Of a stretch of DNA of 32,000 nucleotides, positions 9,367-32,000 are shown one piece after another (the first letter of the stretch is position 1; each line of letters starts with the position of its first letter). This DNA is from Trichlorobacter lovleyi SZ. GTDB lineage: Bacteria > Desulfobacterota > Desulfuromonadia > Geobacterales > Pseudopelobacteraceae. Position numbers and translations under genes: made by a program. The notes under the pieces were generated by a model. It was not told the DNA's origin, searched no databases, and was given only the letters and a program-made list of their open reading frames with translations. The DNA is taken from the NCBI RefSeq assembly GCF_000020385.1, contig NC_010814.1, positions 1,050,001-1,082,000 on the forward strand, read 5' to 3'.

Positions 9367-9990
9367 TCAGTGCAGTTCGGCAAAGTTTTTCAGCATCTGC
9401 AGGCCGATTCCCTGCGATTTTTCAGGGTGAAACTGGGTGGCCATGACATTGTCCTTGCGGATGGCGGCGCAGAATTCCAGGCCGTAGCTGCAGGTGGCTG
9501 CTACGACAGACGGGTCATCGGGCCTGACGTAGTAGGAGTGTACGAAATAGACGTTACTGCCGTCGCTAATGCCGTTAAACAACGGTGTCTCTGCCTTCAG
9601 GGTGATCTGATTCCAGCCCATGTGAGGTACCGGCAGCTTTTCCCCCTGTTCCTTCATTCCCTCCGGGAAACGGACCACCCGTCCGGGGATGACTCCCAGC
9701 CCCTTGTGCAGGCCGAACTCTTCGCTTTCGCTAAAAAGCAGCTGCAGCCCGAGGCAGATCCCCAGAAAAGGCCGCCCTTCGGCAATCACCTGCAGGATCG
9801 GCTCAACAAACCTACCCTGCTCCAGATTGTGGATACAATCCCGGAAGGCGCCTACCCCCGGCAGTACGATTTTTTCTGCTGCAAGGATGCGTGCCGGATC
9901 AGCGGTTACTTCCGCCGCAAAACCTATCCGCTCAAAGCCTTTTTGAACCGAGCGCAGGTTGCCCATGCCGTAGTCAATGATTGCGATCAT
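9367..9990 (-). CDS. hisH: Imidazole glycerol phosphate synthase, glutamine amidotransferase subunit
   Basis: The internal ATG at 9990 gives [15 protein letters not shown], with catalytic GICLGLQ and HSYY. This ATG overlaps the upstream MCP stop (ATGA at 9987-9990). Confidence 0.93.
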
Positions 9991-11543
9991 TTGATACCAT
10001 TCTTGGTCAGGTGTGGACCGTATTTCTTGTCCTGCCCCTTGATGTGGTCGATCAGCCACTTCTGCAGGAAGGTGATCACGTCCTGCGAGAGTACGGTTTC
10101 ACCGCTCTGGAATTTGCCGATCAATGCGACGACCTGATCTACCAGGGCCTTGTGCAGCAGCTTGTGGTTGGCCTCGTCCGGATAACGGGTCTGGGCGAAG
10201 ACCTTTTCCTCGTCGGCAAAGTGATTGACCGTGTAGTCGGCCAGGCCGCGCAGGATTTCACCAATCGCCTCTTTGGTCCGCTTCTGTTGCATGGCGTCAT
10301 GCAGGTCGTTGACCATTCGGAACAACACTTTGTGCTGCTCATCATAGCGGTGGACACCGGTGGCAAAACTGTCATCCCAGACCAGGGCATTGGCCAGCTT
10401 GAAGTGACCTACCAGCTGGTGCAGATCATCAACCTGCTGGACCAGCTTGGTGGTTGCGTCGGTGGTGCTGCGGGCATTTTCCACGTTACGGTTGACCACC
10501 TCGGTAATCAGCTGGATGTTGTGGGTGATCTCGCTGGTGGTGGCGGTCTGCTCTTCTGCGGCGGTTGCCACCTGGCTGATCTGCATGGCCAGTTCGTTGA
10601 TCATGTTCAGGATATCTTCCAGGGCCTCGCCGGAGCGGGTGGTTCCCTCCGTACCCCGTTTTACCTGCTCAACACCCTCGTACATGGAACCGACAGCCGA
10701 TTGGGTTTCGGACTGAATGGTCTTGATCATGCTAGCGATCTCTTTGGTGGCCCGGGTGGTCCGCTCTGCCAGAGCCCGCACCTCATCGGCCACCACGGCG
10801 AAGCCCCGTCCCATTTCACCGGCCCGGGCCGCCTCAATGGCGGCGTTCAGGGCCAGCAGGTTGGTCTGGTCGGCAATATCCTCAATCGTTCCGACAATGG
10901 CGCCGATCTGATCGGAACGCTGTCCCAGACCCTGTACGGTTTCCGATGACTGCATCACCCGCTGGGCAATGTTTTCCATGACATCGGCGCTGCTGCGAAC
11001 AATCTGCGCACCGCTGGTGGTCTGTTCGGTTGCCTTCTGGGAATTCTCGGCGGCGTACAGACAGTTGCGGGCAATATCCGCTGAGGTGGCCGACATCTCT
11101 TCACTGGCCGTTGCAATGGTGCTTGACTGCAGGGCAACCTCTTCAGCTGCATTGACCATGGCATTGGTGGTGTTCTGTACCAGCTGCACAGAGTCCCTGA
11201 CCAGATCGGCCACCGAGAAAAACTGCCGCATGGCCTTGTTCATGTCATGCATCATGGTGTTGAAGGCGGTTCCCAGACGATGGATCTCGCCGACCCCGTC
11301 CACCTCGACACGCACCGACAGGTCGCCGGCTGCCGCCTTCTCCAGGGCTGTTGTAACCGTCATCAACGGCTCGAAAGCCTTGCGGCAGAGCAGCCAAAGG
11401 ACCAGCGATGAGCCGCCGAGCAGAACCAGGCCCAGGATGACGGCATTGAGCGGACTACCGGTGCGGTTCAAAAGTGTGAGAGCAAGTACGGCAATGACAA
11501 CAACAATGGCGTTACCCAAGACTATGCGACCGGTGAATGACAT
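9987..11543 (-). CDS. Methyl-accepting chemotaxis protein with C-terminal hemerythrin-like domain (DcrH-type)
   Basis: 518 aa. Two N-terminal TM helices are joined by a very short loop, then a HAMP and the MCP signalling domain ([32 protein letters not shown]). The C-terminal 130 aa carry hemerythrin ligand motifs: H..DEQH, HFADEE, HKLLH and [10 protein letters not shown]. Confidence 0.9.
9990..10379 (-). other. Hemerythrin-like di-iron domain region of the MCP
   Basis: The region runs [20 protein letters not shown] ... [11 protein letters not shown] ... [11 protein letters not shown] ... [17 protein letters not shown]. All canonical His/Glu/Asp ligand positions can be recognised. Confidence 0.8.
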
Positions 11544-11578: not shown

Positions 11579-13642
11579 TTAGCCAGCCAATCTGCCAAAG
11601 TCTGCAATCCTGCTGAAAAGTCGGTTGATGGTGGTCAAAAGTGCCAGACGGTTGTTGCGGACGGCACTATCCTCCGCCATGACCATGACTGCATCGAAGA
11701 AGGCATCCACCGCCCATTTCAGACCGGCTATGTCGGTCAGTGCCTCCAGGTACTGCTGCTGCTGAATCTTGTCTGAGGCGGAGAGCTTGGTTTCCTGCAG
11801 CACCCGGTAAAGGGTGTGCTCCGCTTCATCCTGAAACAGGGCCGGGGCAACCGGGGCATCGATCCCCTCCTTGATGATGTTGCAGACCCGTTTGAAGGCC
11901 ACGGTCAGCGGCTGGAAATCATCCCGCTGGCGGAAGGTGTCCAGGGCGCGGATCCGTTCGGCGCAGTCGGCCAGATCATCAAACCCGGCAGCCATTGCCG
12001 CCTCAACCACGTCGGCCGGATAGGCATTACCCTGCAGGTTGACAAAACGGCCCCGGAAAAACTCCAGCACATCGTGACGGACCTCGTCACGGGGACGGGT
12101 CAGTTTTGCGGCCAGCAACTCAAGTGATTTGTCGATCAGTCCGGATAATGACAGGCTGTAGCCCTTGTCCAGAATGATGCTGATCATGCCGATGGTGGCA
12201 CGGCGCAGGGCATAGGGGTCGGCAGCACCGGTCGGTATCAGCCCGACACCAAAGCAGCCGCAGAGGGTATCCAGTTTGTCAGCCAGCGAGACAAAAGCGC
12301 CGATATCCGAAGCGGGCAGGTCACCACCGGCCTGGGTGGGCAGGTAATGCTCGGCAATCGCATTGGCCACGGCCGTCTCTTCACCATCATGCAGGGCGTA
12401 CTCGCGTCCCATAATCCCCTGCACCTCGGGGAATTCGCCCACCATGCCGGAGACCAGATCGGCCTTGCAGAGGAAGGCTGTCCGTGCGGCCTGTTGTTTG
12501 GCAGCAGGGTTGAGCTGCTCAGCCAGCTGTTCAGCCAATGCCCGGAAACGCTCCATCTTCTCATAGGAGGTGCCCAGTTTCTGCTGGTAGACGACACTTT
12601 TGAGCGACTCGACCCGGCTTTCAAGCCGCAGCTTGCGGTCTTCGTCAAAGAAGAAACGGGCATCGGACAGGCGGGCCCGCAAAACGCGTTCATTGCCCCT
12701 GACCACCACCGCCGGATCTTCGGCCAGGGTGTTGGGGATGGTAATGAAGTAGGGCAGCAGCTTGCCGTTTTCATCCACCACCGAGAAGTAGCGCTGGTGG
12801 GAACGCATGGAGGTGATCAGCACCTCTTTGGGCACCACCAGGAATTCGGCCGGGATGCTGCCGATAATGGCGCTGGGGTACTCCACCAGGTAGGTGACCT
12901 CTTCCAGCAACGACTCATCCGGCAGCAGATGTCCACCGGTGGTCTTGGCAACCCGGTGGGTCTCCTTACGGATGGTCTCTTTGCGACGTTCCTGATCAAC
13001 GATGACGAAATGACGTTCGCACTCATCCAGGTAGTGGGCAAAGTCCCGCACCGGAAAGGTACTGTTGGCCATGAAACGGTGGCCGCGGGAGATGTTGCCG
13101 CTCTGGATCGGACCAAAACTGAACGGCACCACGATGCCGTCGAACAGGGCCACAATCCAGTGTACCGGACGGGCGAAGCGGATATCCAGATCTGCCCAGC
13201 GCATTGATTTCTTGAACGGGATACCGGCCACCAGCCTGGGTAGAATCTCGGCCAGCAGCTCATGGGTCGGGCGTCCGGTTTCCTGTCTGGTAACCGCCAG
13301 ATATTCGCCTTTGTCAGTGCTGATAACCTGCAGGGCAGAGACGTCCACCCCCTGGCCACGGGCAAACCCTTCAGCAGCCTTGGTCGGTTTGCCGTCGGCA
13401 TCAAATGCTGCCTTCTTTGACGGCCCCATGGCGGTCAGTTCAGCATCGGGCTGGATGACTGGCAGTCCTTTGATATGCAGCGTCAGGCGGCGCGGGGTTC
13501 CCATGGTCACGATGGCATCAAAACAGAGCCGGGCAGTCTCAAGCTCTTTGCGGATCATCTCTTCAAGGGATGCAAGCGCCTTGGGTACGAATCCGGCCGG
13601 GATTTCCTCGGCACCAATTTCAAGCAACAGTTCCTTGGACAT
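11579..13642 (-). CDS. glyS: Glycine-tRNA ligase beta subunit
   Basis: 687 aa with MSKELLLEIGAEEIP, GTPRRL, RGHRF and a typical GlyS C-terminal anticodon-binding region. It follows glyQ after 3 nt. Confidence 0.96.
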   Translation of the reverse strand: MSKELLLEIGAEEIPAGFVPKALASLEEMIRKELETARLCFDAIVTMGTPRRLTLHIKGLPVIQPDAELTAMGPSKKAAFDADGKPTKAAEGFARGQGVDVSALQVISTDKGEYLAVTRQETGRPTHELLAEILPRLVAGIPFKKSMRWADLDIRFARPVHWIVALFDGIVVPFSFGPIQSGNISRGHRFMANSTFPVRDFAHYLDECERHFVIVDQERRKETIRKETHRVAKTTGGHLLPDESLLEEVTYLVEYPSAIIGSIPAEFLVVPKEVLITSMRSHQRYFSVVDENGKLLPYFITIPNTLAEDPAVVVRGNERVLRARLSDARFFFDEDRKLRLESRVESLKSVVYQQKLGTSYEKMERFRALAEQLAEQLNPAAKQQAARTAFLCKADLVSGMVGEFPEVQGIMGREYALHDGEETAVANAIAEHYLPTQAGGDLPASDIGAFVSLADKLDTLCGCFGVGLIPTGAADPYALRRATIGMISIILDKGYSLSLSGLIDKSLELLAAKLTRPRDEVRHDVLEFFRGRFVNLQGNAYPADVVEAAMAAGFDDLADCAERIRALDTFRQRDDFQPLTVAFKRVCNIIKEGIDAPVAPALFQDEAEHTLYRVLQETKLSASDKIQQQQYLEALTDIAGLKWAVDAFFDAVMVMAEDSAVRNNRLALLTTINRLFSRIADFGRLAG

Positions 13643-22208: not shown

Positions 22209-23510
22209 ATGAAAAACTTCTTTGAATTCAGTCGGTATAACACTTCCTACCGCCAGGAGAGCCTGGCCGGTCTCACCACCTTTCTGACCATGGCCTACAT
22301 CATGGTGGTCAATCCTTCCATCCTGGCGGCAGCCGGAATACCCAAGGATGCCCAGGTCACAGCCACCATTCTGGCCGCAGTGATCGGGTGCCTGGTAATG
22401 GCCTTCTGGGCCAGGCGGCCCTTTGCCATTGCCCCCTACATGGGGGAAAACGCCTTTATCGCCTTTGTGGTGGTCAAGGGGATGGGCTATTCCTGGCAGA
22501 TTGCGCTGGGGGCGGTCTTCTGGGCCGGACTGGCCTTTATCCTGCTGACCGTCCTGAAGGTGCGGTCGTGGCTGGCTGAATCGATTCCGATCTCGTTGAA
22601 GGCAGCCTTTGCAGTGGGGATCGGACTGTTCCTGGCCTTTATCGGTCTGAATGAAACCGGCCTGGTGGTACTGGGGGTGCCGGGGGCGCCGGTCAGGCTG
22701 GGCAACATTGCCCAGAGTTCGGTCCTGTTGGCTGCGGCAGGCTTTCTGCTGTGCGTGGTGCTGATGGCGAGGAAGGTAAACGGGGCGCTGCTGTACGGCA
22801 TTGTCGCCACAACCCTCGGTTCCGTGGCGCTGGGGCTTACGAAGCTGCCGGCATCGCTGGTCAGTCTGCCCCCCTCACTGGAACCGGTTTTTCTGAAGCT
22901 TGATATTGCCGGCACCCTGCAACCCGGCATCTTTCCGGTGGTGCTGGTGGTCTTTATGATGGCCTTCCTGGATACCATCGGCACCCTGATCGGTCTTTCC
23001 ATGCGGGCTGACCTGCTGGATAAGGACGGTAACCTGCCGGAGATCGAACGTCCGATGCTGGCAGATGCCGTTGCCACCACCCTTGCCCCGCTGCTGGGAA
23101 CCACCACCACCGGCGCTTACATTGAATCAGCAACCGGTATTGCAGCAGGTGGACGTACCGGTTTTACCGCCCTGGTGGTGGCGGTACTGTTTGCCCTGTC
23201 GCTCTTTTTTGCACCGCTTTTTACCATGGTGCCGGGCTATGCCGCCGGTATTGCCCTGGTGGTGATCGGTGCCCTGATGCTCCAGGCCGTCACCCGGCTT
23301 GATTTTGACGATTTTACCGAACTGATTCCGGCCTTCCTGACCGTTGCGTTGATGATCTTTACCTACAATATCGGGATCGGCATGACGGTCGGCCTGTTTT
23401 CCTATCCCCTGATCAAGCTCTGCACCGGCCGGGCCCGGGAGGTCTCCGGCGGGATGTGGGTGCTGGCTGCACTCTCCCTTGTATTTTTTATAGTTATGCC
23501 TAAAGGCTAA
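22209..23510 (+). CDS. NCS2/AzgA-family purine (adenine/guanine/hypoxanthine) permease
   Basis: I chose the ATG at 22209. The sequence begins MKNFFEFSRYNTSYRQESLAGLTTFLTMAYIMVVNPSILAAAG and is highly hydrophobic throughout. Confidence 0.88.
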   Translation: MKNFFEFSRYNTSYRQESLAGLTTFLTMAYIMVVNPSILAAAGIPKDAQVTATILAAVIGCLVMAFWARRPFAIAPYMGENAFIAFVVVKGMGYSWQIALGAVFWAGLAFILLTVLKVRSWLAESIPISLKAAFAVGIGLFLAFIGLNETGLVVLGVPGAPVRLGNIAQSSVLLAAAGFLLCVVLMARKVNGALLYGIVATTLGSVALGLTKLPASLVSLPPSLEPVFLKLDIAGTLQPGIFPVVLVVFMMAFLDTIGTLIGLSMRADLLDKDGNLPEIERPMLADAVATTLAPLLGTTTTGAYIESATGIAAGGRTGFTALVVAVLFALSLFFAPLFTMVPGYAAGIALVVIGALMLQAVTRLDFDDFTELIPAFLTVALMIFTYNIGIGMTVGLFSYPLIKLCTGRAREVSGGMWVLAALSLVFFIVMPKG

Positions 23511-24763
23511 TCCTGTTTCATCGGTTTACGTCTGGTGATCAGCCGCACCTGGCGTTCATGGAACCAGTAGTACCAGACCCAGTTCAGCAAGACGACAATC
23601 CGGTTACGGAAGCCGATCAGGTAATACAGGTGCAGCAGCAGCCAGGCCAGCCAGGCCGGATAGCCTCTGAGCTGCAGCCCAAAGACGTTTGCCACGGCGG
23701 CGTTACGCCCAATGGTTGCCATACTGCCTTTGTCATGGTAGCGAAAGGGGGGCAGAACGCTGCCCTGCTCCTTGGCAAGGATCGCCTTTGCTGCATAGAC
23801 CCCCATCTGCATCGCAACCTGGGCGATCATCGGCAGTGCCTTGCCATCCTGCTGCAACCAGGCTATGTCGCCAATCACAAAGACGTCCGGGTGATCAGCC
23901 AGGGTCAGGTCCGGTTCCACTATGATCCTGCCTCCTGCTGCGCGGGGAACCTCAAGTCTGGCGGCCAGCGGCGCTGCCTTGACACCCGCCGACCAGACCA
24001 GGGTGTGGGCCGGAATCACCGCACCGTCATGGAGGCTGACTTTCTCCGCATCCACATCAACCACCTGGGCATTCAGCAATACCTCAACCGACATACTGCG
24101 CAGCTTCTGCAGGGTATACATCCCCAGCTCCTGGGGCATGGCCGCCAGCAGCCGGTCCGTGGCCTCCACCAGGACTACTCTGGCCGTATGGATACCCAGT
24201 TCCGGGTAGTCCTTGGCCAGCACAAAGTTCACCAGCTCAATCAGTGCCCCGGCAAATTCAACCCCGGTCGGGCCGCCACCGACCACCACAAAGGTCATCA
24301 GTGCCCGCTTGCGGGCCGGATCAGGCTCGATGACAGCCCGCTCAAAGGCGCTCAGGATATGGTTGCGCAGTACTTCGGCATCTTCCAGCTCCTTCAGGTC
24401 AAAGGCGTGCTGCTCAACGGCTGTCAGCCCGAAAAAATTGGTGGCGCTTCCGGCGCCGATGATCAGGTAGTCGTAGGGAAGCAGGCCGCTGGTGACCTGG
24501 ATCTCTTTGCGGGAGAAATCAATTCCGGTGACTTCAGTCAGATGGAAGCGTACATCCGGCCAGGAACGGGCCATGGCGCGTACCGAATAGGCAATCGATT
24601 CCTGCTCCAGGCCTGCCGTGGCCACTTGATACAGCAACGGCTGAAACAGATGATAATTGTTGCGGTCCACCAACAGAATATCATGCCCCTTGCCGGCCAG
24701 TGCCTGGGCGGCGTGGACGCCGCCAAATCCCATTCCGACGATCACAATCCGTTTTTTTTGCAT
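23507..24763 (-). CDS. ndh: Type II NADH dehydrogenase (NDH-2)
   Basis: There are two Rossmann motifs, IVIVGMGFGGV and VVVGGGPTGVE. The C-terminal membrane-anchoring segment is hydrophobic. Confidence 0.92.
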   Translation of the reverse strand: MQKKRIVIVGMGFGGVHAAQALAGKGHDILLVDRNNYHLFQPLLYQVATAGLEQESIAYSVRAMARSWPDVRFHLTEVTGIDFSRKEIQVTSGLLPYDYLIIGAGSATNFFGLTAVEQHAFDLKELEDAEVLRNHILSAFERAVIEPDPARKRALMTFVVVGGGPTGVEFAGALIELVNFVLAKDYPELGIHTARVVLVEATDRLLAAMPQELGMYTLQKLRSMSVEVLLNAQVVDVDAEKVSLHDGAVIPAHTLVWSAGVKAAPLAARLEVPRAAGGRIIVEPDLTLADHPDVFVIGDIAWLQQDGKALPMIAQVAMQMGVYAAKAILAKEQGSVLPPFRYHDKGSMATIGRNAAVANVFGLQLRGYPAWLAWLLLHLYYLIGFRNRIVVLLNWVWYYWFHERQVRLITRRKPMKQD

Positions 24764-24766
24764 GGG

Positions 24767-25243
24767 TCACACGCCCCTGTCAGAGTCTGTTTGATCGTTT
24801 GTCAGTATATCGTTGCGCTGTGCTGCCTCGCAGGCAGCCAGCCGCTGTTTCAGCTCTTTTTCTTTTTGCCAGCGTTCGGTTACATCGCGCATGATCGAGG
24901 CGCAGCCCAGCATGACGTTTTTCTCATCATGCAACAACACCATGCTGAATTCCAGCGATACCTGACTGCCATCCCTGCGGACGGCCGGAGATGTCAGCAG
25001 GCCGGTTTTGTACTTGGTCTCTCCACTGGCCATCACACGGTAGTACCCTTCCCAGTGTCGTTCCCGCAGTTTTTCCGGTATGAAGAGGTCTAATGAACGG
25101 CCGATCGCCTCTGCGGCGCTGTAGCCGAGCAGCCGTTCCGCCCCTGCGTTCCAGAAAAGGATTGTCCCTTCTCTGTCAGCGATCAGGATCGCATCCTGAG
25201 CCTGTTCCACGGTCTGCACAAGCAGGCTTGCAATTGCTGTCAT
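24767..25243 (-). CDS. Stand-alone PAS-domain protein (FixL-like layout)
   Basis: 158 aa. DAILIADREGTILFWNAGAERLLGYSAAEAIGRSLDLFIPEKLRERHWEGYYRVM...RRDGSQV aligns by eye with heme-PAS domains of the FixL type. Its stop lies 3 nt before the ndh ATG. Confidence 0.8.
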   Translation of the reverse strand: MTAIASLLVQTVEQAQDAILIADREGTILFWNAGAERLLGYSAAEAIGRSLDLFIPEKLRERHWEGYYRVMASGETKYKTGLLTSPAVRRDGSQVSLEFSMVLLHDEKNVMLGCASIMRDVTERWQKEKELKQRLAACEAAQRNDILTNDQTDSDRGV

Positions 25244-25335: not shown

Positions 25336-25349
25336 TTGACCAACATCAA
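25336..25349. promoter_or_regulatory. FNR/CRP-family-like box 1
   Basis: TTGACcaacATCAA matches TTGAT-N4-ATCAA at 9 of 10 positions. Confidence 0.45.
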
Positions 25350-25379: not shown

Positions 25380-25393
25380 TTGATGTCAGTCAA
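25380..25393. promoter_or_regulatory. FNR/CRP-family-like box 2
   Basis: TTGATgtcaGTCAA matches the consensus at 9 of 10 positions. TACAGT at 25416-25421 lies where a -10 would be if the box were centred at -41.5. Confidence 0.45.
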
Positions 25394-25448
25394 TGAGATC
25401 TTTACCCGGCCGCGTTACAGTCAGATCACATTCTGAAGGAGGTACCGT

Positions 25449-26684
25449 ATGCAGACGCAACTGTTACATAAAGATATGACCATTAAGGAACTGCTGGAAC
25501 AACATCCGGAGACACTGGAGGTGCTGGTTGCCAATGGATTTGAAAACCTGAAAGACCCCAAGGTGCTGGCCGGTGTTGGCGGCTTTCTGAAGCTGGAGCG
25601 GGCCGCCCTGACCAAGAACTATGATCTGGACAATTTTCTGGGGCTCCTGCAACAGAAGGTTGATGAAAAGCATAACCAGGTGGATGTCACCATGAAGCAG
25701 ACCCAGCAGGAGCAGAGCGAGATTACCATCTCCGGCCTGTTGCCCTGTCCGGTACGGCTGCCGCTGCTGGAAGGCTTTGACCGCTTTATTGAGCAGTACA
25801 CCAGGGACAGCGGTACCACGGTCAGCTACAAGTTTGAGGCAGCCTCGCTCGGCTCGGCCTGGATGGATGAGCATATCCAGACGGTTACTGCCCCTGACCA
25901 GCTGCCGGATATCTTTGTGTCGGCCGGATTTGAGACCTTCTTTGATCCGGCTACCATCGGCAGGTTCAAGGATCAGGGGCTGTTTGCCGACCTTACCGGT
26001 GACGCAGTAAACCGCAGCTTTGAAGGACTTGAACTGAAAGATCCTAAAGGCCACTATGGTCTGATTTCCGTAGTGCCGTCTGCCTTCATGGTTAACCATG
26101 ACGAGCTGGGTGACCTGCCGGTGCCCCGTACCTGGGCAGATATCCTCAAGCCGGAGTTTGAGCAGAAAGTGGCCCTGCCGGTGGGTGATTTTGACCTGTT
26201 CAACGCGATCCTGCTTACCATTCATAAGATGTATGGCGATGAGGGAGTCAAGAAACTGGGACGTTGCATGCTGAAATCGATGCACCCGGCCCAGATGATC
26301 AAAAATGCCCAGCGGGTGGCAGAAGAAAAACCTCCGGTGACGATCATTCCCTACTTTTTCAGCCGGATGGCCGGCATGGTCAAAAGTCTGGAGATTGTCT
26401 GGCCTGAGGATGGCGCCATCATAAGCCCGATCTTTATGCTGGCCAAGGCTGGCAAGCAGGACAAGCTGCAGCCGATTGCAGACTTCCTGTGCAGTAAAGA
26501 GGTGGGAGAGATCCTGACCAACCGTGGGTTGTTCCCGGCCTTGAATCCGGCCGTGGAGAACCAGTTGCCGGAGCAACACCCCTGGCAGTGGGTTGGATGG
26601 GATTACCTCTACAGCCATGATATAGCCGCCCAGATTCGGTATACCGTGGGGCTGTTTGAAGAAGCGATGAACGCAGATGAATGA
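25449..26684 (+). CDS. Cytoplasmic DUF1858-like domain fused to a periplasmic-binding-protein (SBP) fold; no signal peptide
   Basis: 411 aa with RBS GAAGGAGG. The N-terminus DMTIKELLEQHPETLEVLVANGF...DLDNFLGLL resembles DUF1858/ScdA_N but has no CxxC. The remaining roughly 320 aa resemble type II solute-binding proteins (LLPCPVRLPLLE...). The antisense 436-aa ORF is rejected. Confidence 0.8.
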   Translation: MQTQLLHKDMTIKELLEQHPETLEVLVANGFENLKDPKVLAGVGGFLKLERAALTKNYDLDNFLGLLQQKVDEKHNQVDVTMKQTQQEQSEITISGLLPCPVRLPLLEGFDRFIEQYTRDSGTTVSYKFEAASLGSAWMDEHIQTVTAPDQLPDIFVSAGFETFFDPATIGRFKDQGLFADLTGDAVNRSFEGLELKDPKGHYGLISVVPSAFMVNHDELGDLPVPRTWADILKPEFEQKVALPVGDFDLFNAILLTIHKMYGDEGVKKLGRCMLKSMHPAQMIKNAQRVAEEKPPVTIIPYFFSRMAGMVKSLEIVWPEDGAIISPIFMLAKAGKQDKLQPIADFLCSKEVGEILTNRGLFPALNPAVENQLPEQHPWQWVGWDYLYSHDIAAQIRYTVGLFEEAMNADE

Positions 26685-26696
26685 TGAAAGGCCATG

Positions 26697-26839
26697 ATGA
26701 TAGCACGCGGATAACGCGGATTGAGCAGATCTGCACGGATTTAAAGCAAAAAAACAGGATGTAGATAGTGTCAAGGGACAAGCCGGAATCTGTTTTAATC
26801 AGCGTACATCCGCCATAATCAGCGTTATCCGCGTTCCAT
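26697..26839. repeat. GCGGAT-type imperfect palindromic element
   Basis: The left arm is ATGATAGCACGCGGATAACGCGGATTGAGCAGATCTGCACGGATTTAAAG. The right arm CTGTTTTAATCAGCGTACATCCGCCATAATCAGCGTTATCCGCGTTCCAT is its imperfect reverse complement. The loop is about 30 nt. Confidence 0.65.
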
Positions 26840-26873
26840 TGCTTTTGATTTTTGTTTGTATAAGGAGAGAACC

Positions 26874-27557
26874 ATGCACTTTTTAACCGTATCCGGCCCG
26901 CCATCATCAGGCAAGACCTCGGTCATCCTGCGGGTAATCGAGGCCTTACAGGCCAAGCAGAAGAAGATCGGGGTGGTCAAGTATGACTGCCTGATGACGG
27001 AAGATGACCTGAGCTATGCCAAGAAAGGGGTGCTGGTCAAGAAGGGGCTTTCCGGCTCCCAGTGCCCGGACCACTACTTTGTCAGCAATATCGAGGCCTG
27101 CGTCAAATGGGGTGTCGAGAACGATTGTGATTTCCTGATCAGCGAATCAGCAGGTCTCTGCAATCGCTGTTCGCCCCATATCAAGGATATTACGGCAGTC
27201 TGCGTGATCGACAACTTAAGCGGCATCAATACGCCGCGTAAGATCGGGCCGATGTTGAAATCAGCCGATATTGTGGTGATCACCAAGGGAGATATCGTCT
27301 CCCAGGCCGAGCGGGAGGTGTTTGCCTCACGGGTCAAGCAGGTCAATCCCGGCGCGGTGATCATGAACATCAACGGTATTACCGGCCAGGGGGCCTTTGA
27401 GCTGACTACCCTGTTTGAAGAGGCCTCGGATATCGAGACCCTGAAGGGGATGCGGCTGCGTTTCTCCATGCCGTCGGCGCTCTGTTCCTACTGTCTGGGT
27501 GAGACACGGATTGGTGATGAATATCAGACCGGCAATGTCAGAAAAATGGAGTCTTGA
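26874..27557 (+). CDS. HypB/UreG-like G3E-family P-loop GTPase (divergent)
   Basis: I chose the ATG at 26874, with AAGGAGAG 5 nt upstream. The Walker A is GPPSSGKT. SGSQCPDH sits at the position of the HypB Cys-His metal motif, and ESAGLCNRCSP at the position of ENVGNLVCP. TKGD replaces NKxD, and there is a C-terminal CSYC. Confidence 0.8.
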   Translation: MHFLTVSGPPSSGKTSVILRVIEALQAKQKKIGVVKYDCLMTEDDLSYAKKGVLVKKGLSGSQCPDHYFVSNIEACVKWGVENDCDFLISESAGLCNRCSPHIKDITAVCVIDNLSGINTPRKIGPMLKSADIVVITKGDIVSQAEREVFASRVKQVNPGAVIMNINGITGQGAFELTTLFEEASDIETLKGMRLRFSMPSALCSYCLGETRIGDEYQTGNVRKMES

Positions 27558-27559
27558 CC

Positions 27560-28558
27560 ATGCACTACCATGATCTTTTACTACAACCATTAAAGCAGTT
27601 GCTGGCCGACTATCCCTGGCTGGAGGATTTTTTCAGTTCATTCGGCCTGCAGCTGCAGGCTGTGGAGCAACCGCTACAGCAGTATCTGGATCAACTGGAC
27701 CCAGACCAATTGCTTGATCTGGGGATCAGTCAGGAGCAGCTGCAGCAGAGCCTGCATGATTTTATGGCCGGTATGCTGGCCCTGGATGAAGCTGCTGAAA
27801 AGGTGGAGTCACTAACCATCATCGGCGGTTTTGACAAGACCGGAACTGCTGAACAGTTGGAGCTTACGCTAAAACCGGGTGAGGTGATCTGCATCGTCGG
27901 TCCCACCGGCTCCGGCAAGAGCCGTCTGTTGGCCGATATCGAGTGGGTGGCCCAGGGTGATACCCCCACCAAACGCAAGGTCCTGATCAACGGCACGGTG
28001 CCTGACAACAAGTGGCGCTTCTCAACCGAACATAAGCTGGTGGCACAACTTTCACAGAACATGAACTTTGTGATGGACCTGACTGCCGAGGAGTTTGTGC
28101 GGATGCATGCGGAAAGCCGTTTGGTGCCTGATCCGGAGGAAAAGGTGGCCCGGATTCTGGAGCAGGCCAATCAGCTGGCCGGTGAACAGTTCAAGCCGGA
28201 CACGCCGGTCACTTCACTCAGCGGCGGGCAGTCCCGGGCCCTGATGATTGCCGACATGGCAATCCTGAGCAAGTCGCCGATTGTACTGATTGATGAGATC
28301 GAAAATGCCGGTATTGACCGTAAAAAGGCACTGGAACTATTGGTAAAACAGGAAAAAATCATTCTTATGGCCACCCATGACCCGATTCTGGCGTTGATGG
28401 GGGACAAGAGGCTGGTAATCAAAAATGGCGGTATTGCCAAGATCATTGCATCAAGCGATGCAGAACGGAAGAATCTGTCCAGGCTGGAAGAGCTGGATAA
28501 TACCCTGCTGGCCCTGCGCAACAGGATCAGGTTCGGGGAAATATTAGAGGAACTGTAA
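27560..28558 (+). CDS. Soluble ABC-type ATPase with an N-terminal extension of about 85 aa; no cognate permease nearby
   Basis: The Walker A is GPTGSGKS and the signature is LSGGQSRAL. The Walker B is VLIDEIE and the H-loop is MATHD. The N-terminus PLKQLLADYPWLEDFFSSFGL resembles the DUF1858-like head of the first gene. The start lies 2 nt after the GTPase stop. Confidence 0.85.
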   Translation: MHYHDLLLQPLKQLLADYPWLEDFFSSFGLQLQAVEQPLQQYLDQLDPDQLLDLGISQEQLQQSLHDFMAGMLALDEAAEKVESLTIIGGFDKTGTAEQLELTLKPGEVICIVGPTGSGKSRLLADIEWVAQGDTPTKRKVLINGTVPDNKWRFSTEHKLVAQLSQNMNFVMDLTAEEFVRMHAESRLVPDPEEKVARILEQANQLAGEQFKPDTPVTSLSGGQSRALMIADMAILSKSPIVLIDEIENAGIDRKKALELLVKQEKIILMATHDPILALMGDKRLVIKNGGIAKIIASSDAERKNLSRLEELDNTLLALRNRIRFGEILEEL

Positions 28559-28583
28559 TCTAAACAGAAAAGGAGATACGAAT

Positions 28584-28826
28584 ATGCACCAGGGATGTGA
28601 TGGCAGTTTTGGCGGCGGAGCAGGGGTGGTTGATAAGCTGCGGATGATGGGATATAGCGGTATGGCGATGCCGGTTGAGACCCGGTTGGTCTGTGAAGGC
28701 TGCGGAACCTCCTTCCAGATGAAGACCATGGAAGATCGCTGCCCCCAATGCGGCATGGTCTATGGGGTAACCCCCTGCCATGCCCATGATCCGCGCAGTA
28801 TCCAGGCCGCCGGGATAGGTTATTGA
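28584..28826 (+). CDS. 80-aa zinc-ribbon protein (HypA-like Cys pattern)
   Basis: The RBS AAGGAGA lies 7 nt upstream. The pattern is C37-EG-C40 x12 C53-PQ-C56, followed by C65-H-A-H68. The N-terminus is MHQ. A strong terminator follows directly. Confidence 0.7.
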   Translation: MHQGCDGSFGGGAGVVDKLRMMGYSGMAMPVETRLVCEGCGTSFQMKTMEDRCPQCGMVYGVTPCHAHDPRSIQAAGIGY

Positions 28827-28849
28827 TTATATTTGTGTTGTAAGGTTGA

Positions 28850-28885
28850 AACGGGCAGCTCCCTGCAGGGGGCTGCCCGTTTTTG
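28850..28885 (+). terminator. Intrinsic terminator after the four-gene cassette
   Basis: AACGGGCAGCTCCCTGCAGGGGGCTGCCCGTT is followed by TTTT. Confidence 0.8.
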
Positions 28886-29050
28886 TTCTGCCGTCCCCCG
28901 CAGTTCCGGGAAATTTTGAAACAGTGTGTGATTTTTTGCAGCCAAAACAGGCGAATCATGCAATGATAGCTTTAATTCAATCAAACAGATTGGTTAGACA
29001 TTTTTTAGGTTTGTACGCATTGAGTTTCAGGTTGTTCCAAGGAGGATTGC

Positions 29051-29872
29051 ATGGGGTTCTCGCTTGATCTTCGCTACCAGATTTGCCTGCAGCCGATTGA
29101 ACTGCCGGTTTTTAATCCGGTCGCTCTGGAGTTGCTCCAGCTGTTGGCTGATCCGACGGTTGAAATCGACCATGTCACTGAGATCATCCAAAAGGATCAG
29201 GGGCTGGCTATTCAGGTGCTCAGGATGGCCAATTCATCGGCCTACGTGGGGCGTACCCGCTCTGAGACCATTAAAGATGCGGTCAATCGTCTGGGGGGCA
29301 AACAGATAACCAGTCTGGCAATGGCTGCCTCGCAGGCGGCCCTGCACGCCTCCGAAAATCCGGTTGTGAACGAGGTAATGCGGCATCTCTGGCTGCATTC
29401 CCACGCCTGCGCACTGGGCTGCCGTTCTCTGGCTATCAGCAGCGGCCACCGTGCGTTGGCAGATCAGGCCTATCTGGCAGGCCTGCTGCATGATATCGGC
29501 AAGCTCTATCTGCTGAAGGCGATGGAGCGGATCAGTCTGTCCCGGGAGATCAGTTTTGAGCTGGATCTTGAAACCCTGCTGGATGTCTTTTCCGATATGC
29601 ATGTTGAACAAGGGGTCCGGATCATGAACCATTGGGACATCCCCCCCCTGTACTGCGCTATTGCAGCACACCATCATGCAGAGACCTTTGATCCTGGCGA
29701 CACCCTGCTGGCCATTGTCCGGCTGGTCAACTTCAACAGCATGCAGTACAACCTCAACCTGTATCCGCGGCTGGTACAACCACCGGATGCCCTGCCTGAA
29801 ATTTTGCTGCTGAAGGTGGGAGATCCGGAACTGGTAAAACTGGAAGCGGATATGCAAGTGGTCTGTGCCTAA
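29051..29872 (+). CDS. HDOD-domain protein
   Basis: 273 aa with RBS AAGGAGG. The HDOD pattern reads LPVFNPVALELLQLLADP...IIQKDQGLAIQVLRMANSSAY...LLHDIGKLYLL. Confidence 0.88.
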   Translation: MGFSLDLRYQICLQPIELPVFNPVALELLQLLADPTVEIDHVTEIIQKDQGLAIQVLRMANSSAYVGRTRSETIKDAVNRLGGKQITSLAMAASQAALHASENPVVNEVMRHLWLHSHACALGCRSLAISSGHRALADQAYLAGLLHDIGKLYLLKAMERISLSREISFELDLETLLDVFSDMHVEQGVRIMNHWDIPPLYCAIAAHHHAETFDPGDTLLAIVRLVNFNSMQYNLNLYPRLVQPPDALPEILLLKVGDPELVKLEADMQVVCA

Positions 29873-29931
29873 CCGTTTGAGCGAAAGTCGGAGAATTCCG
29901 GTCACCAGCAGTCCCAAGCCACAGGAACGCC

Positions 29932-30642
29932 ATGAACATTACTGACCTTTACAGCACCCGCATCCAAAAGAACTTTGACGAAGACCAGGCTGAGATCCTT
30001 GCCGTGCTGCAGGCGAATCTCAAAAAGCCTCTCAAGCTGATCAACTATTACAAGGGGATTCCGCTTTCCTATCCGGCAACCATCGCCTCCATCAGCAAGG
30101 GGATTGTCGATCTGGATGTGCATGAGGTGCAGGCCTTTACCATTGAGCAGACCCACTCAACCTTCATACGAAGTCCCCTGTTCAAGCATGCCCTGTTTGC
30201 CCAGGCACAGTATGTCAATGTCAGTAAAAGGGCTGCAGCCTTTGTGCAGTTTTCCTACGTTGAAATCATGGCCGAACACCGGAGTTTCGTCAGGGTTGCG
30301 GTTGATTCTCAGGAGCCGGTCTCGATTGAATCCCCGCTGGGGACAATTGAGGGGCAGTTATATGATATCTCACTCTCAGGGCTGAACATCCTGATTGACT
30401 ACACCTGTCCGCTGGAACCAGGTGCCGAAACAACCGTGCAGTTTGTGCTCAGAAGCCCTGAAACAGCTCAGGCTATCAACGCCCGTCTTCCGGCGATCCT
30501 GATCGGCATCGCCGGCGATGTCCCGCCCTACAGTTACCGTTTTGCCATCAGCCCTGAAAAGCAGCTTGAAAGCCAGATCTCACAGTATATCTTTCAACGT
30601 CAGGTTGCGATTATCAGGGGGGTTAAGGAGGTGATCTCCTGA
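29932..30642 (+). CDS. PilZ-domain c-di-GMP receptor with YcgR-like N-terminal domain
   Basis: The RxxxR motif (HRSFVRV) and the DxSxxG motif (DISLSGL) are about 28 residues apart. Confidence 0.85.
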   Translation: MNITDLYSTRIQKNFDEDQAEILAVLQANLKKPLKLINYYKGIPLSYPATIASISKGIVDLDVHEVQAFTIEQTHSTFIRSPLFKHALFAQAQYVNVSKRAAAFVQFSYVEIMAEHRSFVRVAVDSQEPVSIESPLGTIEGQLYDISLSGLNILIDYTCPLEPGAETTVQFVLRSPETAQAINARLPAILIGIAGDVPPYSYRFAISPEKQLESQISQYIFQRQVAIIRGVKEVIS

Positions 30643-30720: not shown

Positions 30721-32000
30721 CTACAGCTTGAAGCGTCCCACCAGACCTTCCAGATCTTTCGCCAGGCCGGACAGTTCTGAGGCTGCACCGGCGGTTTGAT
30801 GGGCGCCGTTGGCGGTTTGTTGGACCACATCGGTGATCTGGTGGATGTTGGTGGATATCTCGCCGGTGACGGCGGTCTGCTCTTCTGCAGCCGTAGCAAT
30901 CTGATGCACCTGCAGGGTGACTTCATTGATCCCTTCCAGGATCTGCTGCAGGGCATCACCGGATCGGCGTGAACTGTCCATCCCTTTCTCAACCTCTACA
31001 ACTCCCTGCTCCATTGAGGTCACAGCGCCACCGGTTTCCTGCTGGATCGCCTTGATCATCTCACCGATCTCGCGGGTGGCGCGGGTTGTCCGTTCTGCCA
31101 GGGCCCGTACTTCGTCGGCAACCACGGCAAAGCCGCGCCCCATCTCGCCGGCCCGGGCCGCCTCAATGGCGGCATTCAGGGCCAGCAGGTTGGTCTGGTC
31201 GGCAATATCCTCAATCGTTCCGACAATGGCCCCGATCTGGTCAGAGCGGGCCCCCAGTGCCTCAACCGTACGGGCCGATTCACGCACCTTCTCTGCAATG
31301 GTCTGCATACCTGAGATGGTTTCCTGTACCACAGAGGCACCACCATGGGCCATTTCACTGGCACGGTTGGCGATGTCGGACGCCAGGGTGCAATTGCGGG
31401 AGATGTCGTTGGAGGTGGCTGACATCTCTTCACTGGCTGTGGCAACCGTGGCTGACTGGCAGGCCACTTCCTCAGCAGCAGTCGCGATCTGTTCGGCAGT
31501 GCTGTGCAGCTGGTTGGATGCCGTAGCGACCTGGACCGTTGTGGTGGTGGCCTGGGAGATGATGGAGTGGATATTCTCAACAAAGCGGTTAAACCAGTGG
31601 CTTACTTCGCCAAACTCATCCTTGCGGTTGGCGTCCAGACGCCGGGTCAGGTCTCCCTCGCCCTGGGCTATATCCTGTAGCATCTCTACCAGCTTGCGCA
31701 ACGGTCCGGTAATACTGCCGACAATCAGCAGGCTGAGCAGCAGGGTCAGGACAGCCATTGTCAGTGATATGGCAATACTTAAAATCAGCGCCAGGCGGGC
31801 TGTGCCTGCCTGGTCGGATGCCTGTTGCAGGATTCCTTTTGCGATCCCGTCTTCGATCTCTTTCATCTGATCAATTTTAGCGGTAATGGCGCTAAACCAG
31901 GTTTCCGGCGTGATTTCAAAGCTGCCGGCCATCCCCTTTGCAAGCACGGCGTTGCGTAACTCATCCGCCTTTTTGAATGATTCAGACTGCGCCTTTTCAT
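30721..32000 (-). CDS. Methyl-accepting chemotaxis protein with NIT-type sensor domain (N-terminus outside the window)
   Basis: The reading frame stays open upstream of the track start (GTG at 31947) to the window edge (...[52 protein letters not shown]). It continues through a TM helix, a HAMP ([24 protein letters not shown]) and an MCP signalling domain. Confidence 0.9.

Follow-up and report, generated by a model that had tools for sequence, protein, structure and literature searches.

Why would a binding-protein fold, a metallochaperone-type GTPase, an ATP-binding cassette (ABC) ATPase and a tiny zinc-ribbon protein be encoded side by side with no permease gene among them? This question is raised by four adjacent genes, here called A, B, C and D, of Trichlorobacter (Geobacter) lovleyi SZ, found within a 32,000-nucleotide stretch of contig NC_010814.1 (positions 1,050,001 to 1,082,000), which was analysed as a whole and is hereafter called the window. 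An earlier reading of the same DNA, made from the letters alone (the original prediction), had proposed a cytoplasmic metal or metallocofactor hand-off system. Altogether, the results presented here show that A-B-C-D is an uncharacterised cytoplasmic module, encoded without a permease and conserved in many phyla of anaerobes. That it is a cytoplasmic metal-trafficking module, acting after uptake or damage and induced by anoxic nitrite or nitric oxide (NO) stress, is a reading that we hold at about even chances.

Organization of the cassette

All four genes lie on the plus strand, with gene A at 25449-26684 (411 aa), gene B at 26874-27557 (227 aa from its ATG), gene C at 27560-28558 (332 aa from its ATG) and gene D at 28584-28826 (80 aa). 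Their products are identical to ACD94758-ACD94761 (WP_012469108-111), and the lengths of the four open reading frames (ORFs) are those of the database orthologues. A gap of 189 nt separates A from B, the stop codon of B lies 2 nt before the ATG of C, and C and D are 25 nt apart. The operon is closed by an intrinsic terminator at 28849-28890 on the plus strand, in which a GC-rich hairpin (28849-28882) is followed by TTTTTGTT; this hairpin was detected by folding (folding energy of -32.3 kcal/mol, z = -3.8), a simple terminator scan having given no match at 28849-28882. Coordinates and folding agree with the four same-strand ORFs, the 2-nt and 25-nt gaps and the closing terminator described earlier. 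In the databases, the T. lovleyi proteins are named 'ABC transporter substrate-binding protein/DUF1858' (A), 'GTP-binding protein' (B), 'ATP-binding cassette domain-containing protein' (C) and 'hypothetical protein/HypA' (D).

By hydropathy, none of the four proteins has a transmembrane segment or a signal-peptide-like N terminus (maximum KD19 of 0.57-1.51), with the xanthine permease encoded two genes upstream used as a positive control (maximum KD19 of 2.49). No permease gene adjoins the T. lovleyi cassette, which is flanked by divergent genes for a PAS protein and an NDH-2 type NADH dehydrogenase and by genes for HDOD and PilZ proteins.

The four genes are conserved as a unit

Orthologous loci were collected in a scan that took one genome per species and returned 80 loci, or 79 distinct loci after one duplicate was removed, spanning Desulfuromonadales, Deferribacterales, Spirochaetota, Marinilabiliales (Bacteroidota), Cloacimonadota, Fermentibacterota, Acidobacteriota and Marinimicrobia. 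In these 79 loci, which represent at least eight phyla, A-B-C-D have the same order and the same strand wherever the locus is long enough to show it, the exception being five Deferribacteraceae in which D is replaced by a YgbA-family gene. The full A-B-C-D order is seen in approximately 70 of these loci, and it was also found in a Vibrio. This arrangement is far beyond chance, and the co-occurrence elsewhere that was expected of a genuine system is thereby established. When neighbours within five genes were clustered across the 79 loci, no recurrent permease or membrane component appeared, so that the absence of an adjacent permease, first remarked on in T. lovleyi, extends to the orthologous loci.

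Conservation is extreme in B and nearly equal in the nucleotide-binding domain of C, with A and D more variable. At E < 1e-10, the A family comprises approximately 390 clusters at 50% identity, and ordinary periplasmic binding proteins are not reached. We found no curated family, paper or structure that places the four-gene set in a characterised pathway, in keeping with the original prediction, which did not recognise it as a characterised system either.

A is a cytoplasmic binding-protein fold behind a DUF1858 head

Pfam searches assigned to A a DUF1858 domain (PF08984) at aa 7-63 (nt 25467-25637), with an E value of 1.6e-18 and 67 bits against a cut-off of 32.2, and an SBP_bac_6 domain (PF13343) at aa 150-389, with an E value of 3.7e-80 and 269 bits; the solute-binding-protein (SBP) fold (cluster D) as a whole covers approximately aa 92-405 and is fused behind the DUF1858 head. 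Consistent with this, the AlphaFold model of A (pLDDT 82) shows a small head made of helices, joined by a linker to a bilobed body of the type II binding-protein kind. Its nearest structures in Foldseek are the ferric-binding proteins FbpA, SfuA, YfuA, HitA, FutA and KfuA (E approximately 1e-13, target-normalised TM score of 0.60-0.68), followed by binders of sugar phosphates, pyridoxal phosphate (PLP), phosphonates, metal-citrate and polyamines, all at 11-18% identity. The family profile of A matched the PLP binder P5PA, a putative 2-aminoethylphosphonate (2-AEP) binder, the Campylobacter ferric binder (FbpA) and PotD.

No signal peptide or lipobox was found in A or in 208 family members, whose N-terminal hydropathy has a median of 0.83, and the earlier description of A as a DUF1858-like head joined to an SBP body without export signals is therefore upheld by Pfam, by hydropathy and by its relatives. 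Members of the family that are head-less begin with short polar leaders and are also devoid of signal peptides; accordingly, the A clade as a whole is cytoplasmic. The head profile of A matches the DUF1858 structure 2FI0 (E of 1.2e-6), and its match to the ScdA N-domain (E of 0.29) is not significant. There is no Cys in residues 1-99 and hence no redox Cys pair in the head, which scores 20.4 bits against the 44.95 bits required by TIGR03980. The head is therefore not the 'redox disulfide' form of the domain, and of the redox association noted earlier for DUF1858, the domain is present in A but the cysteine pair is not.

The residues of A that are invariant in the family, and that hold even in relatives at 26-34% identity, comprise C100, which belongs to an LPCP motif immediately behind the first strand, together with H279, Y302, D321, K333, W318, W381 and W384. 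Based on this pattern of conservation, C100, H279, Y302 and D321 are candidate metal ligands; the position of the LPCP cysteine we take to be that of the His-ligand site of FbpA, an assumed correspondence. In a separate observation, a distant relative of A, P0313 (534 aa), is extended at its N terminus by approximately 200 aa that include a GxGxG motif like that of S-adenosylmethionine (SAM) methyltransferases and are fused to a cytoplasmic SBP-like domain; this fusion suggests that other cytoplasmic functions have drawn on the SBP fold.

C is a soluble ABC ATPase carrying a domain related to the head of A

C matches ABC_tran (PF00005) with an E value of 3.5e-18 and 67 bits against a cut-off of 25, and its motifs are all invariant, i.e., Walker A GPTGSGKS, Q-loop LSQN, the signature LSGGQ, Walker B LIDE with its Glu, and H-loop ATHD (H273). 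The complete motif set and the N-terminal extension reported in the original prediction were both recovered; the extension measures approximately 95 aa, and its helical domain at aa 4-72 (nt 27569-27775) was found by hhalign to be homologous to the DUF1858 head of A (96.5% probability, E of 9e-10). Because this N-domain is kept even where A is head-less, it is universal in C and more than a mere counterpart to the head of A.

Across Desulfuromonadales, C is 76-80% identical. Its similarity to solved or curated ABC ATPases is low (best E of approximately 1e-12 to 1e-15; best match in the Protein Data Bank [PDB], 3e-12), and Foldseek returned generic ABC domains only, including the SufC-like SmsC. 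In the AlphaFold model of C (pLDDT 80), confidence within the nucleotide-binding domain is low only for the invariant Q-loop stretch, residues 155-170. The Q-loop region of transporter ATPases grips the coupling helix of the permease, and the low confidence modeled for residues 155-170 would fit a surface that becomes ordered only on a partner.

By sequence, B stands apart among the G3E GTPases

B matches PF02492 (cobW/HypB/UreG) over aa 5-163, with an E value of 1e-13 and 51.8 bits against a cut-off of 20.7. In 77 orthologues, the motifs G1 (GPPSSGKT), G3 (ESAG) and G4 (TKGD) are at least 97% conserved, and the same degree of conservation extends to 120 of the 227 positions. The motif C64-P-D-H67 aligns with GGCPH of UreG, the nickel-binding Cys-Pro-His, and with the Cys-His of M. 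jannaschii HypB (KECH). Further invariant cysteines are C39, C96 and C99 (beside the Walker B-like ESAG), C110 and the C-terminal C204xxC207, and the nine Cys/His/Pro positions checked show no variation over a range of genomes that extends from Geobacter relatives to Clostridia and Vibrio.

The kinship with HypB and UreG that was proposed earlier holds at the level of PF02492 but not at that of orthology. B stays below the equivalog cut-offs of HypB (TIGR00073, 54.4 versus 121.2 bits) and UreG (TIGR00101, 36.9 versus 204.2 bits), and its Clostridium orthologue likewise falls below the HypB and UreG cut-offs. By these sequence criteria, B is best described as a separate, highly conserved clade of G3E GTPases. 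A selenium link was also considered and rejected, since the selenoprotein families of NCBIfam match B and D over the P-loop or the zinc ribbon only; reviews on selenium contained nothing on this cassette.

D and its substitutes provide a small Cys/His-rich partner in most lineages sampled

Invariant in D are M1-H2-x-G4-C5, C37xxC40, C53xxC56 and P64-C65, with H66 present in at least 90% of the sequences and Asp, Glu or Gln at position 3. The zinc ribbon of the original prediction, CxxC-x12-CxxC, is thus present and invariant, but an identification of D with HypA did not survive. D lies below the HypA cut-offs (17.9 versus 28.9 bits for PF01155, over the zinc-ribbon part only, and 15 versus 88 bits for TIGR00100), and a 34-sequence profile of D searched against the PDB matched no HypA structure, the best match being a FYVE finger (E of 0.05). 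On both counts D as HypA was rejected, and the HypA label on some database entries of D is, judged by these scores, not justified. The nickel site of HypA is an N-terminal Met-His-Glu, which the MH(D/E)GC N terminus of D recalls, the resemblance being in sequence only.

In Clostridia, the gene after C encodes Cys/His-rich peptides of 41-43 aa, e.g., MCECGCGCQKPE...CHGDEENHPC. Such tiny ORFs follow A-B-C at 10126-10251 of locus L084 (MGECKCQ...) and at 9876-10007 of locus L085 (MCECGCGCQ...). The N terminus of E. coli HypB carries a CxxCGC nickel site, and the Clostridia mini-peptides resemble this site or a mini-metallothionein; genes of their size are easily missed by annotation. In Deferribacteraceae, a Cys-rich YgbA occupies the place of D or accompanies it. 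In the loci of Niallia (L088), Desulfobacter (L089) and Desulfovibrio (L086), no gene for a small Cys/His-rich protein was identified. Taking D, YgbA and the Clostridia peptides together, a small Cys/His-rich partner is thus recurrent in most lineages sampled.

These properties of B and D bear on whether A binds a metal at all. Conceivably, A holds a non-metal ligand such as a polyamine, a phosphonate or phosphate ester, or a PLP-like cofactor, which the module would remodel or deliver, and B is only a regulatory GTPase; the best profile matches of A are indeed the PLP binder and the putative 2-AEP binder, PotD is matched too, and many Trp, Phe and Asp residues of A are invariant, as in polyamine binders. 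We nonetheless consider this improbable, given that B keeps a complete metal-site motif and invariant Cys/His residues, that the small Cys/His protein recurs as described, that the top folds of A are ferric-binding proteins, and that metal importers and metalloregulators are found among the neighbours described below.

Three regulatory arrangements converge on the operon

In T. lovleyi, two FNR/HcpR-type boxes on the plus strand precede A, a distal one (TTGACCAACATCAA, 25336-25349) 113 nt upstream of its start and a proximal one (TTGATGTCAGTCAA, 25380-25393) 69 nt upstream, both inside the 205 nt that separate A from the divergently transcribed PAS-ndh genes. The pattern TTGAYnnnnRTCAA has three matches in the 32-kb window versus 0.14 expected, two of which lie at the promoter region of A. 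Judging from the spacing, a TACAGT -10-like hexamer at 25416-25421 would put the centre of the proximal box near -41.5, i.e., in a class II activation geometry.

Every Desulfuromonadales and Deferribacterales locus has a box of this type at a distance of 40-100 nt before A, as do both Acidobacteria loci, with a density of 2.63 per kb upstream versus 0.0096 per kb elsewhere in the same loci, a 275-fold difference. Rodionov et al. reported in 2005 that the FNR-like TTGACnnnnGTCAA is the HcpR site of Geobacter, Desulfuromonas and Desulfotalea (profile 2), and placed hcp, frdX, ndh and nrfHA in the predicted HcpR regulon (PMC1274295); of these predicted targets, ndh flanks the T. lovleyi cassette. 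The second HcpR motif, GTAACnnnnGTTAC (HcpR2; motif from PMC1274295), has 10 matches in 1.26 Mb of loci, and seven of them are at cassette promoters, in three Marinilabiliales at -125 from A and in four Spirochaetes upstream of the Rrf2 gene.

In box-less loci, an Rrf2-family gene lies directly upstream of the cassette on the same strand (21 loci), and 19 of these 21 carry a palindromic operator, TTAGGTAT-N4-ATACCTAA (also in the form TATTTAGGTAT-N4/5-ATACCTAAATA), that overlaps a TTGACA promoter. The Rrf2-led loci (L049-L083) include Spirochaetota and Cloacimonadota; in L053, for example, the operator is located 464 nt upstream of the A start, and in some loci the operator is repeated between rrf2 and A. 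The Rrf2 neighbour bears a three-Cys Fe-S signature and passes only the Rrf2 superfamily model. Its assignment as NsrR (40.9 versus 182 bits) or IscR (54 versus 208 bits) was not supported, and the operator differs from the published NsrR (enterobacterial) and IscR motifs. The palindrome may define a new Rrf2 regulon. Altogether, with the FNR/HcpR box, the HcpR2 box and the Rrf2 regulator with its operator, three unrelated regulatory solutions therefore converge on the operon, and two of these three arrangements are published motifs of NO/nitrite-responsive HcpR regulators.

hcp is the most frequent neighbour of the cassette

Examination of the neighbourhoods revealed hcp as the most frequent neighbour, located within 10 kb in 31 of the 79 loci and in three arrangements; this neighbour passes the Hcp equivalog cut-off with 832 bits. 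In the Desulfuromonadales-like loci, hcp is present in 21 of 36 and is divergent from the cassette with a shared promoter region in 20 of the 21. It is co-directional after D in all four Cloacimonadota loci and in 2 of 14 Spirochaetota loci, and it is found in none of the 10 Deferribacterales and none of the four Bacteroidota loci. YgbA_NO (11 loci), a small cupin (six loci), an OsmC-like protein and, in Desulfuromonadales, PilZ also recur near the cassette. Two Cloacimonadota loci (L068 and L077) have the OsmC-like protein, a below-cut-off match to the NCBIfam family 'OsmC-related (seleno)protein', between D and hcp; together with the small upstream cupin, it may be an accessory operon member in Cloacimonadota.

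Previous work has placed hcp and ygbA in the NsrR regulon of Salmonella and E. coli (PMC2884951) and identified Hcp-Hcr as the main NO reductase of nitrate-ammonifying Geobacteraceae (PMC11633192), while stand-alone DUF1858 proteins are strongly NnrR-dependent in Bradyrhizobium and occur in a nitrate-respiration cluster of Thermus (PMC6710368, PMC6282519). The link to anaerobiosis or nitrosative stress, which the original prediction had suggested for T. lovleyi, thus gains strong support from the 275-fold enrichment of FNR/HcpR boxes, from the HcpR2 and Rrf2 operators, and from the proximity of hcp (31 of 79 loci) and ygbA (11 loci).

Does the cassette then serve Hcp alone? Within the general metal-trafficking model, it might be a dedicated maturase or repair factor that inserts iron into the hybrid [4Fe-2S-2O] cluster of Hcp, in analogy to CooC, CooT and CooJ, which insert nickel into CO dehydrogenase, an Hcp homologue. 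The prevalence of hcp is what this proposal would predict, as are its operon-like strings with the cassette in all four Cloacimonadota and in two Spirochaetia, the equivalog-level identity of the neighbour, the divergent hcp promoter region with two HcpR-type boxes common to both units, and the fact that the DUF1858 family was first defined as 'hybrid cluster protein-associated' (TIGR03980). However, no hcp lies within 10 kb of the cassette in Deferribacterales, Bacteroidota, most Spirochaetota or the T. lovleyi window, the importer-linked versions of Firmicutes and Desulfobacter have no hcp nearby, and E. coli Hcp, to our knowledge, matures without cassette genes. An exclusive role in Hcp maturation is, in our judgment, doubtful.

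Versions beside complete importers point to action after import

In Clostridium aceticum and Ca. Contubernalis, a head-less A-B-C lies directly downstream of a complete type II importer with its own ATPase, Peripla_BP_2 binding protein and FecCD permease. B and C of these two genomes are 67% and approximately 60% identical, respectively, to the T. lovleyi proteins, with all Cys/His residues kept. An ArsR/SmtB metalloregulator, which passes its cut-off, follows in C. aceticum, and both Clostridia loci end with a gene for a Cys-rich peptide. In a Desulfobacter-like genome, the genes of the string Peripla_BP_2-FecCD-ATPase-A-B-C share one strand and are closely spaced; in a Niallia, A-B-C comes after a five-gene importer of the Nik/Opp type; and the Vibrio locus reads Rrf2-A-B-C-D among genes for CDF, GDT1 and P-type metal ATPase proteins and cupins. 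The adjacent importers are complete by themselves; therefore, A-B-C does not fill a gap in them but is added to them on the cytoplasmic side. Of the original claim that the system does not import, the lack of an export signal and of a permease still holds, but complete importers do adjoin A-B-C in Clostridia, Desulfobacter and Niallia. Because these importers own a binding protein, a permease and an ATPase, the claim should read 'acts after import'.

It could be argued that the cassette is nevertheless an ordinary ABC importer, with its permease encoded elsewhere and A exported non-classically, or a corrinoid accessory of BtuCDF-like systems. Databases do call A 'Fe3+ ABC transporter substrate-binding protein' and C 'lipoprotein export ATPase', and some loci do adjoin FecCD-type importers. 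We regard this explanation as highly improbable: the 208 family members are devoid of signal peptides and lipoboxes and a folded domain fills the N terminus of A, no permease recurs in the 79 loci, the importers next to A-B-C have a binding protein and an ATPase of their own, and C is distant from transporter ATPases (best PDB E of 3e-12). Searches of Rfam found no riboswitch, of the cobalamin type or any other, and no other RNA family around the cassette or at the importer-linked loci, a weak DnaX match near the cassette being the terminator hairpin. A corrinoid cargo is unlikely because the importer-linked loci have no cobalamin riboswitch.

The same neighbourhoods bear on a second variant of the metal-trafficking model, namely buffering or detoxification, in which Fe or Zn freed by NO from thiolate and Fe-S sites, or dinitrosyl-iron, would be captured and passed to storage or efflux. 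Membership in an NO regulon, the CDF, GDT1 and P-type ATPase efflux genes of the Vibrio locus, the ArsR/SmtB regulator beside the Clostridium version and the Cys-rich, metallothionein-like partners all agree with it. The linkage to uptake systems, by contrast, points to supply and not disposal, no efflux gene recurs in the 79 main-clade loci, and known G3E GTPases deliver metals to clients. We consider this variant unlikely.

A model for cytoplasmic metal hand-off

Returning to the metal-trafficking module acting after uptake or damage, we infer the metal, the client, the contacts, and the order and direction of transfer from the domain identities, cytoplasmic location, synteny, regulatory motifs and neighbourhoods described above. 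According to this model, an FNR-family activator of the HcpR type in T. lovleyi, or an Fe-S Rrf2 repressor in other phyla, would turn the operon on together with hcp. The clamshell of A, with Cys100, His279, Tyr302 and Asp321, would bind a cytoplasmic metal ion or metal chelate, with iron as the leading candidate. A homodimer of C, with its DUF1858-like docking domain, would use ATP to open or strip the loaded A in the place where a permease would otherwise act. A dimer of B would then take the metal at its Cys-Pro-x-His/Cys-rich site and release it on GTP hydrolysis, with D serving as an adaptor or transient metal holder towards the client. The likeliest clients would be Hcp, the NO reductase of these bacteria, and other iron centres damaged by NO, to which metal would be supplied or re-inserted. 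Iron is the favoured candidate cargo because of the FbpA-like fold of A, the Fe-S/Hcp context and the FecCD-type importers.

The model in its full form, in which an SBP cargo clamp run by an ABC ATPase works with a new G3E clade and a mini Cys/His protein to draw a metal out of an imported or damaged carrier and to rebuild NO-damaged iron centres, above all the hybrid cluster of Hcp, is put forward as a tentative proposal. The more general idea of a cytoplasmic metal hand-off, with which the original prediction began, is supported and sharpened by the present results.

Several points weigh against this reading. The cassette contains no metal-specific signature, and the CPxH motif, as in B, is typical of nickel chaperones and not of iron chaperones. 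The conserved Trp/Phe-rich site of A, together with its profile matches to PLP, phosphonate and polyamine binders, fits an organic ligand equally well, and an organic chelate would suit it too. There is no hcp in the 32-kb window or in the Deferribacterales (0 of 10) and Bacteroidota (0 of 4) neighbourhoods, and as far as we know E. coli makes active Hcp in the absence of cassette genes. On the regulatory side, the Rrf2 regulator is not assignable to NsrR, and the FNR-type boxes are indistinguishable by sequence from plain O2-responsive FNR sites.

Other features of the locus

The stand-alone PAS protein (24767-25243) and the NDH-2 type NADH dehydrogenase (ndh, 23507-24763) are both encoded on the minus strand, divergent from A, and share with it the region that contains the boxes. 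In T. thiogenes, the PAS gene is missing and ndh faces A directly, with nrfHA located 2 kb downstream. Downstream of the T. lovleyi cassette (29051-30642; 30721-31947 on the minus strand) are genes for an HDOD protein, a PilZ protein and a chemoreceptor, the N-terminal end of which gives a weak match to the NIT (nitrate/nitrite-sensing) domain. A different PilZ protein, containing a zinc ribbon, is encoded directly downstream on the opposite strand in 21 Desulfuromonadales loci. The PilZ and NIT chemoreceptor neighbours hint at a c-di-GMP or chemotaxis link to nitrate/nitrite sensing.

The third match to the box pattern in the window, TTGATGGTGGTCAA at 11625-11638, lies approximately 82-95 nt upstream of the start (11543) of a chemoreceptor gene (9987-11543, minus strand) whose product has a C-terminal hemerythrin domain. 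Because hemerythrin-like genes are frequent in predicted HcpR regulons (Rodionov et al., PMC1274295), this chemoreceptor may be co-regulated with the cassette.

The spacer between A and B contains, on the plus strand, a long-range hairpin formed by a 23-nt inverted repeat (arms at 26700-26722 and 26817-26839, 87% complementary and 94 nt apart). It has no Rfam match and is common to T. thiogenes only, the A-B gap being approximately 10 nt in most orthologous loci. The hairpin is therefore an insertion specific to this lineage and lies outside the conserved system, and a role as a conserved regulatory element was rejected; it may represent a small inserted element, or a structure for intercistronic processing or attenuation.

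Relation to known systems and implications

The closest parallels to the cassette are HypB-HypA and UreG-UreE/F/H, which likewise feature a G3E GTPase with an aligned metal site and a small Cys-rich protein as its pair. B differs from HypB and UreG by its sub-cut-off scores and six extra invariant cysteines, no hydrogenase or urease genes are linked to it, and an SBP-fold protein and an ABC ATPase are partners unknown in the Hyp and Ure systems. COG0523 proteins such as CobW, ZNG1 and ZigA share PF02492 and the concept of GTP-driven metal delivery under stress or limitation. B, however, is without their CxCC motif and CobW_C domain and gives weak local matches only, and regulation of the cassette is of the NO/anaerobiosis type, not by Zur- or Fur-type boxes. 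SufBC2D/SMS and PhnK/PhnL offer the precedent for C, a soluble ABC ATPase without a membrane domain that presumably moves a soluble partner. Neither SufC nor PhnK is among the best family matches of C, which has a unique DUF1858-like N-domain and an SBP-fold partner in place of SufB/D.

For A, the closest solved folds are FbpA, SfuA and FutA of the same SBP_bac_6 family, at an identity of only 11-18%; unlike them, A is cytoplasmic, has a DUF1858 domain where the signal peptide would be, and belongs to a separate clade. RIC/YtfE/ScdA and the stand-alone DUF1858 proteins resemble the cassette in their small helical domain of the DUF1858/ScdA_N type and in their membership of NO regulons with hcp, but A has no hemerythrin-like di-iron domain and its head no Cys pair. 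Since no paper, curated family or structure covering the four genes was found, we therefore regard the cassette as a variant on the theme of G3E metallochaperones with unprecedented partners, and, should the clamp mechanism coupled to ATP and GTP prove correct, it would come near to being a category of its own.

G3E GTPases are central metallochaperones of biology, and a new clade with such partners would extend the range of mechanisms known for cellular metal transfer. We found in the literature no dedicated assembly or repair factor described for the Fe-S-O cluster of Hcp; if true, the model would provide the first dual ATP/GTP-driven metallochaperone and the first Hcp maturation or repair factor. 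It would also give a function to approximately 400 clusters to which databases now wrongly give the names 'Fe3+ ABC transporter substrate-binding protein', 'lipoprotein export ATPase' or 'HypA'. In nitrate-ammonifying Geobacteraceae (PMC11633192) and, as we understand it, in many anaerobes, NO is reduced to N2O mainly by Hcp. The proposed role of the cassette would thus bear on N2O emission and on the survival of nitrosative stress by anaerobes, and it can be tested in tractable relatives of Geobacter.

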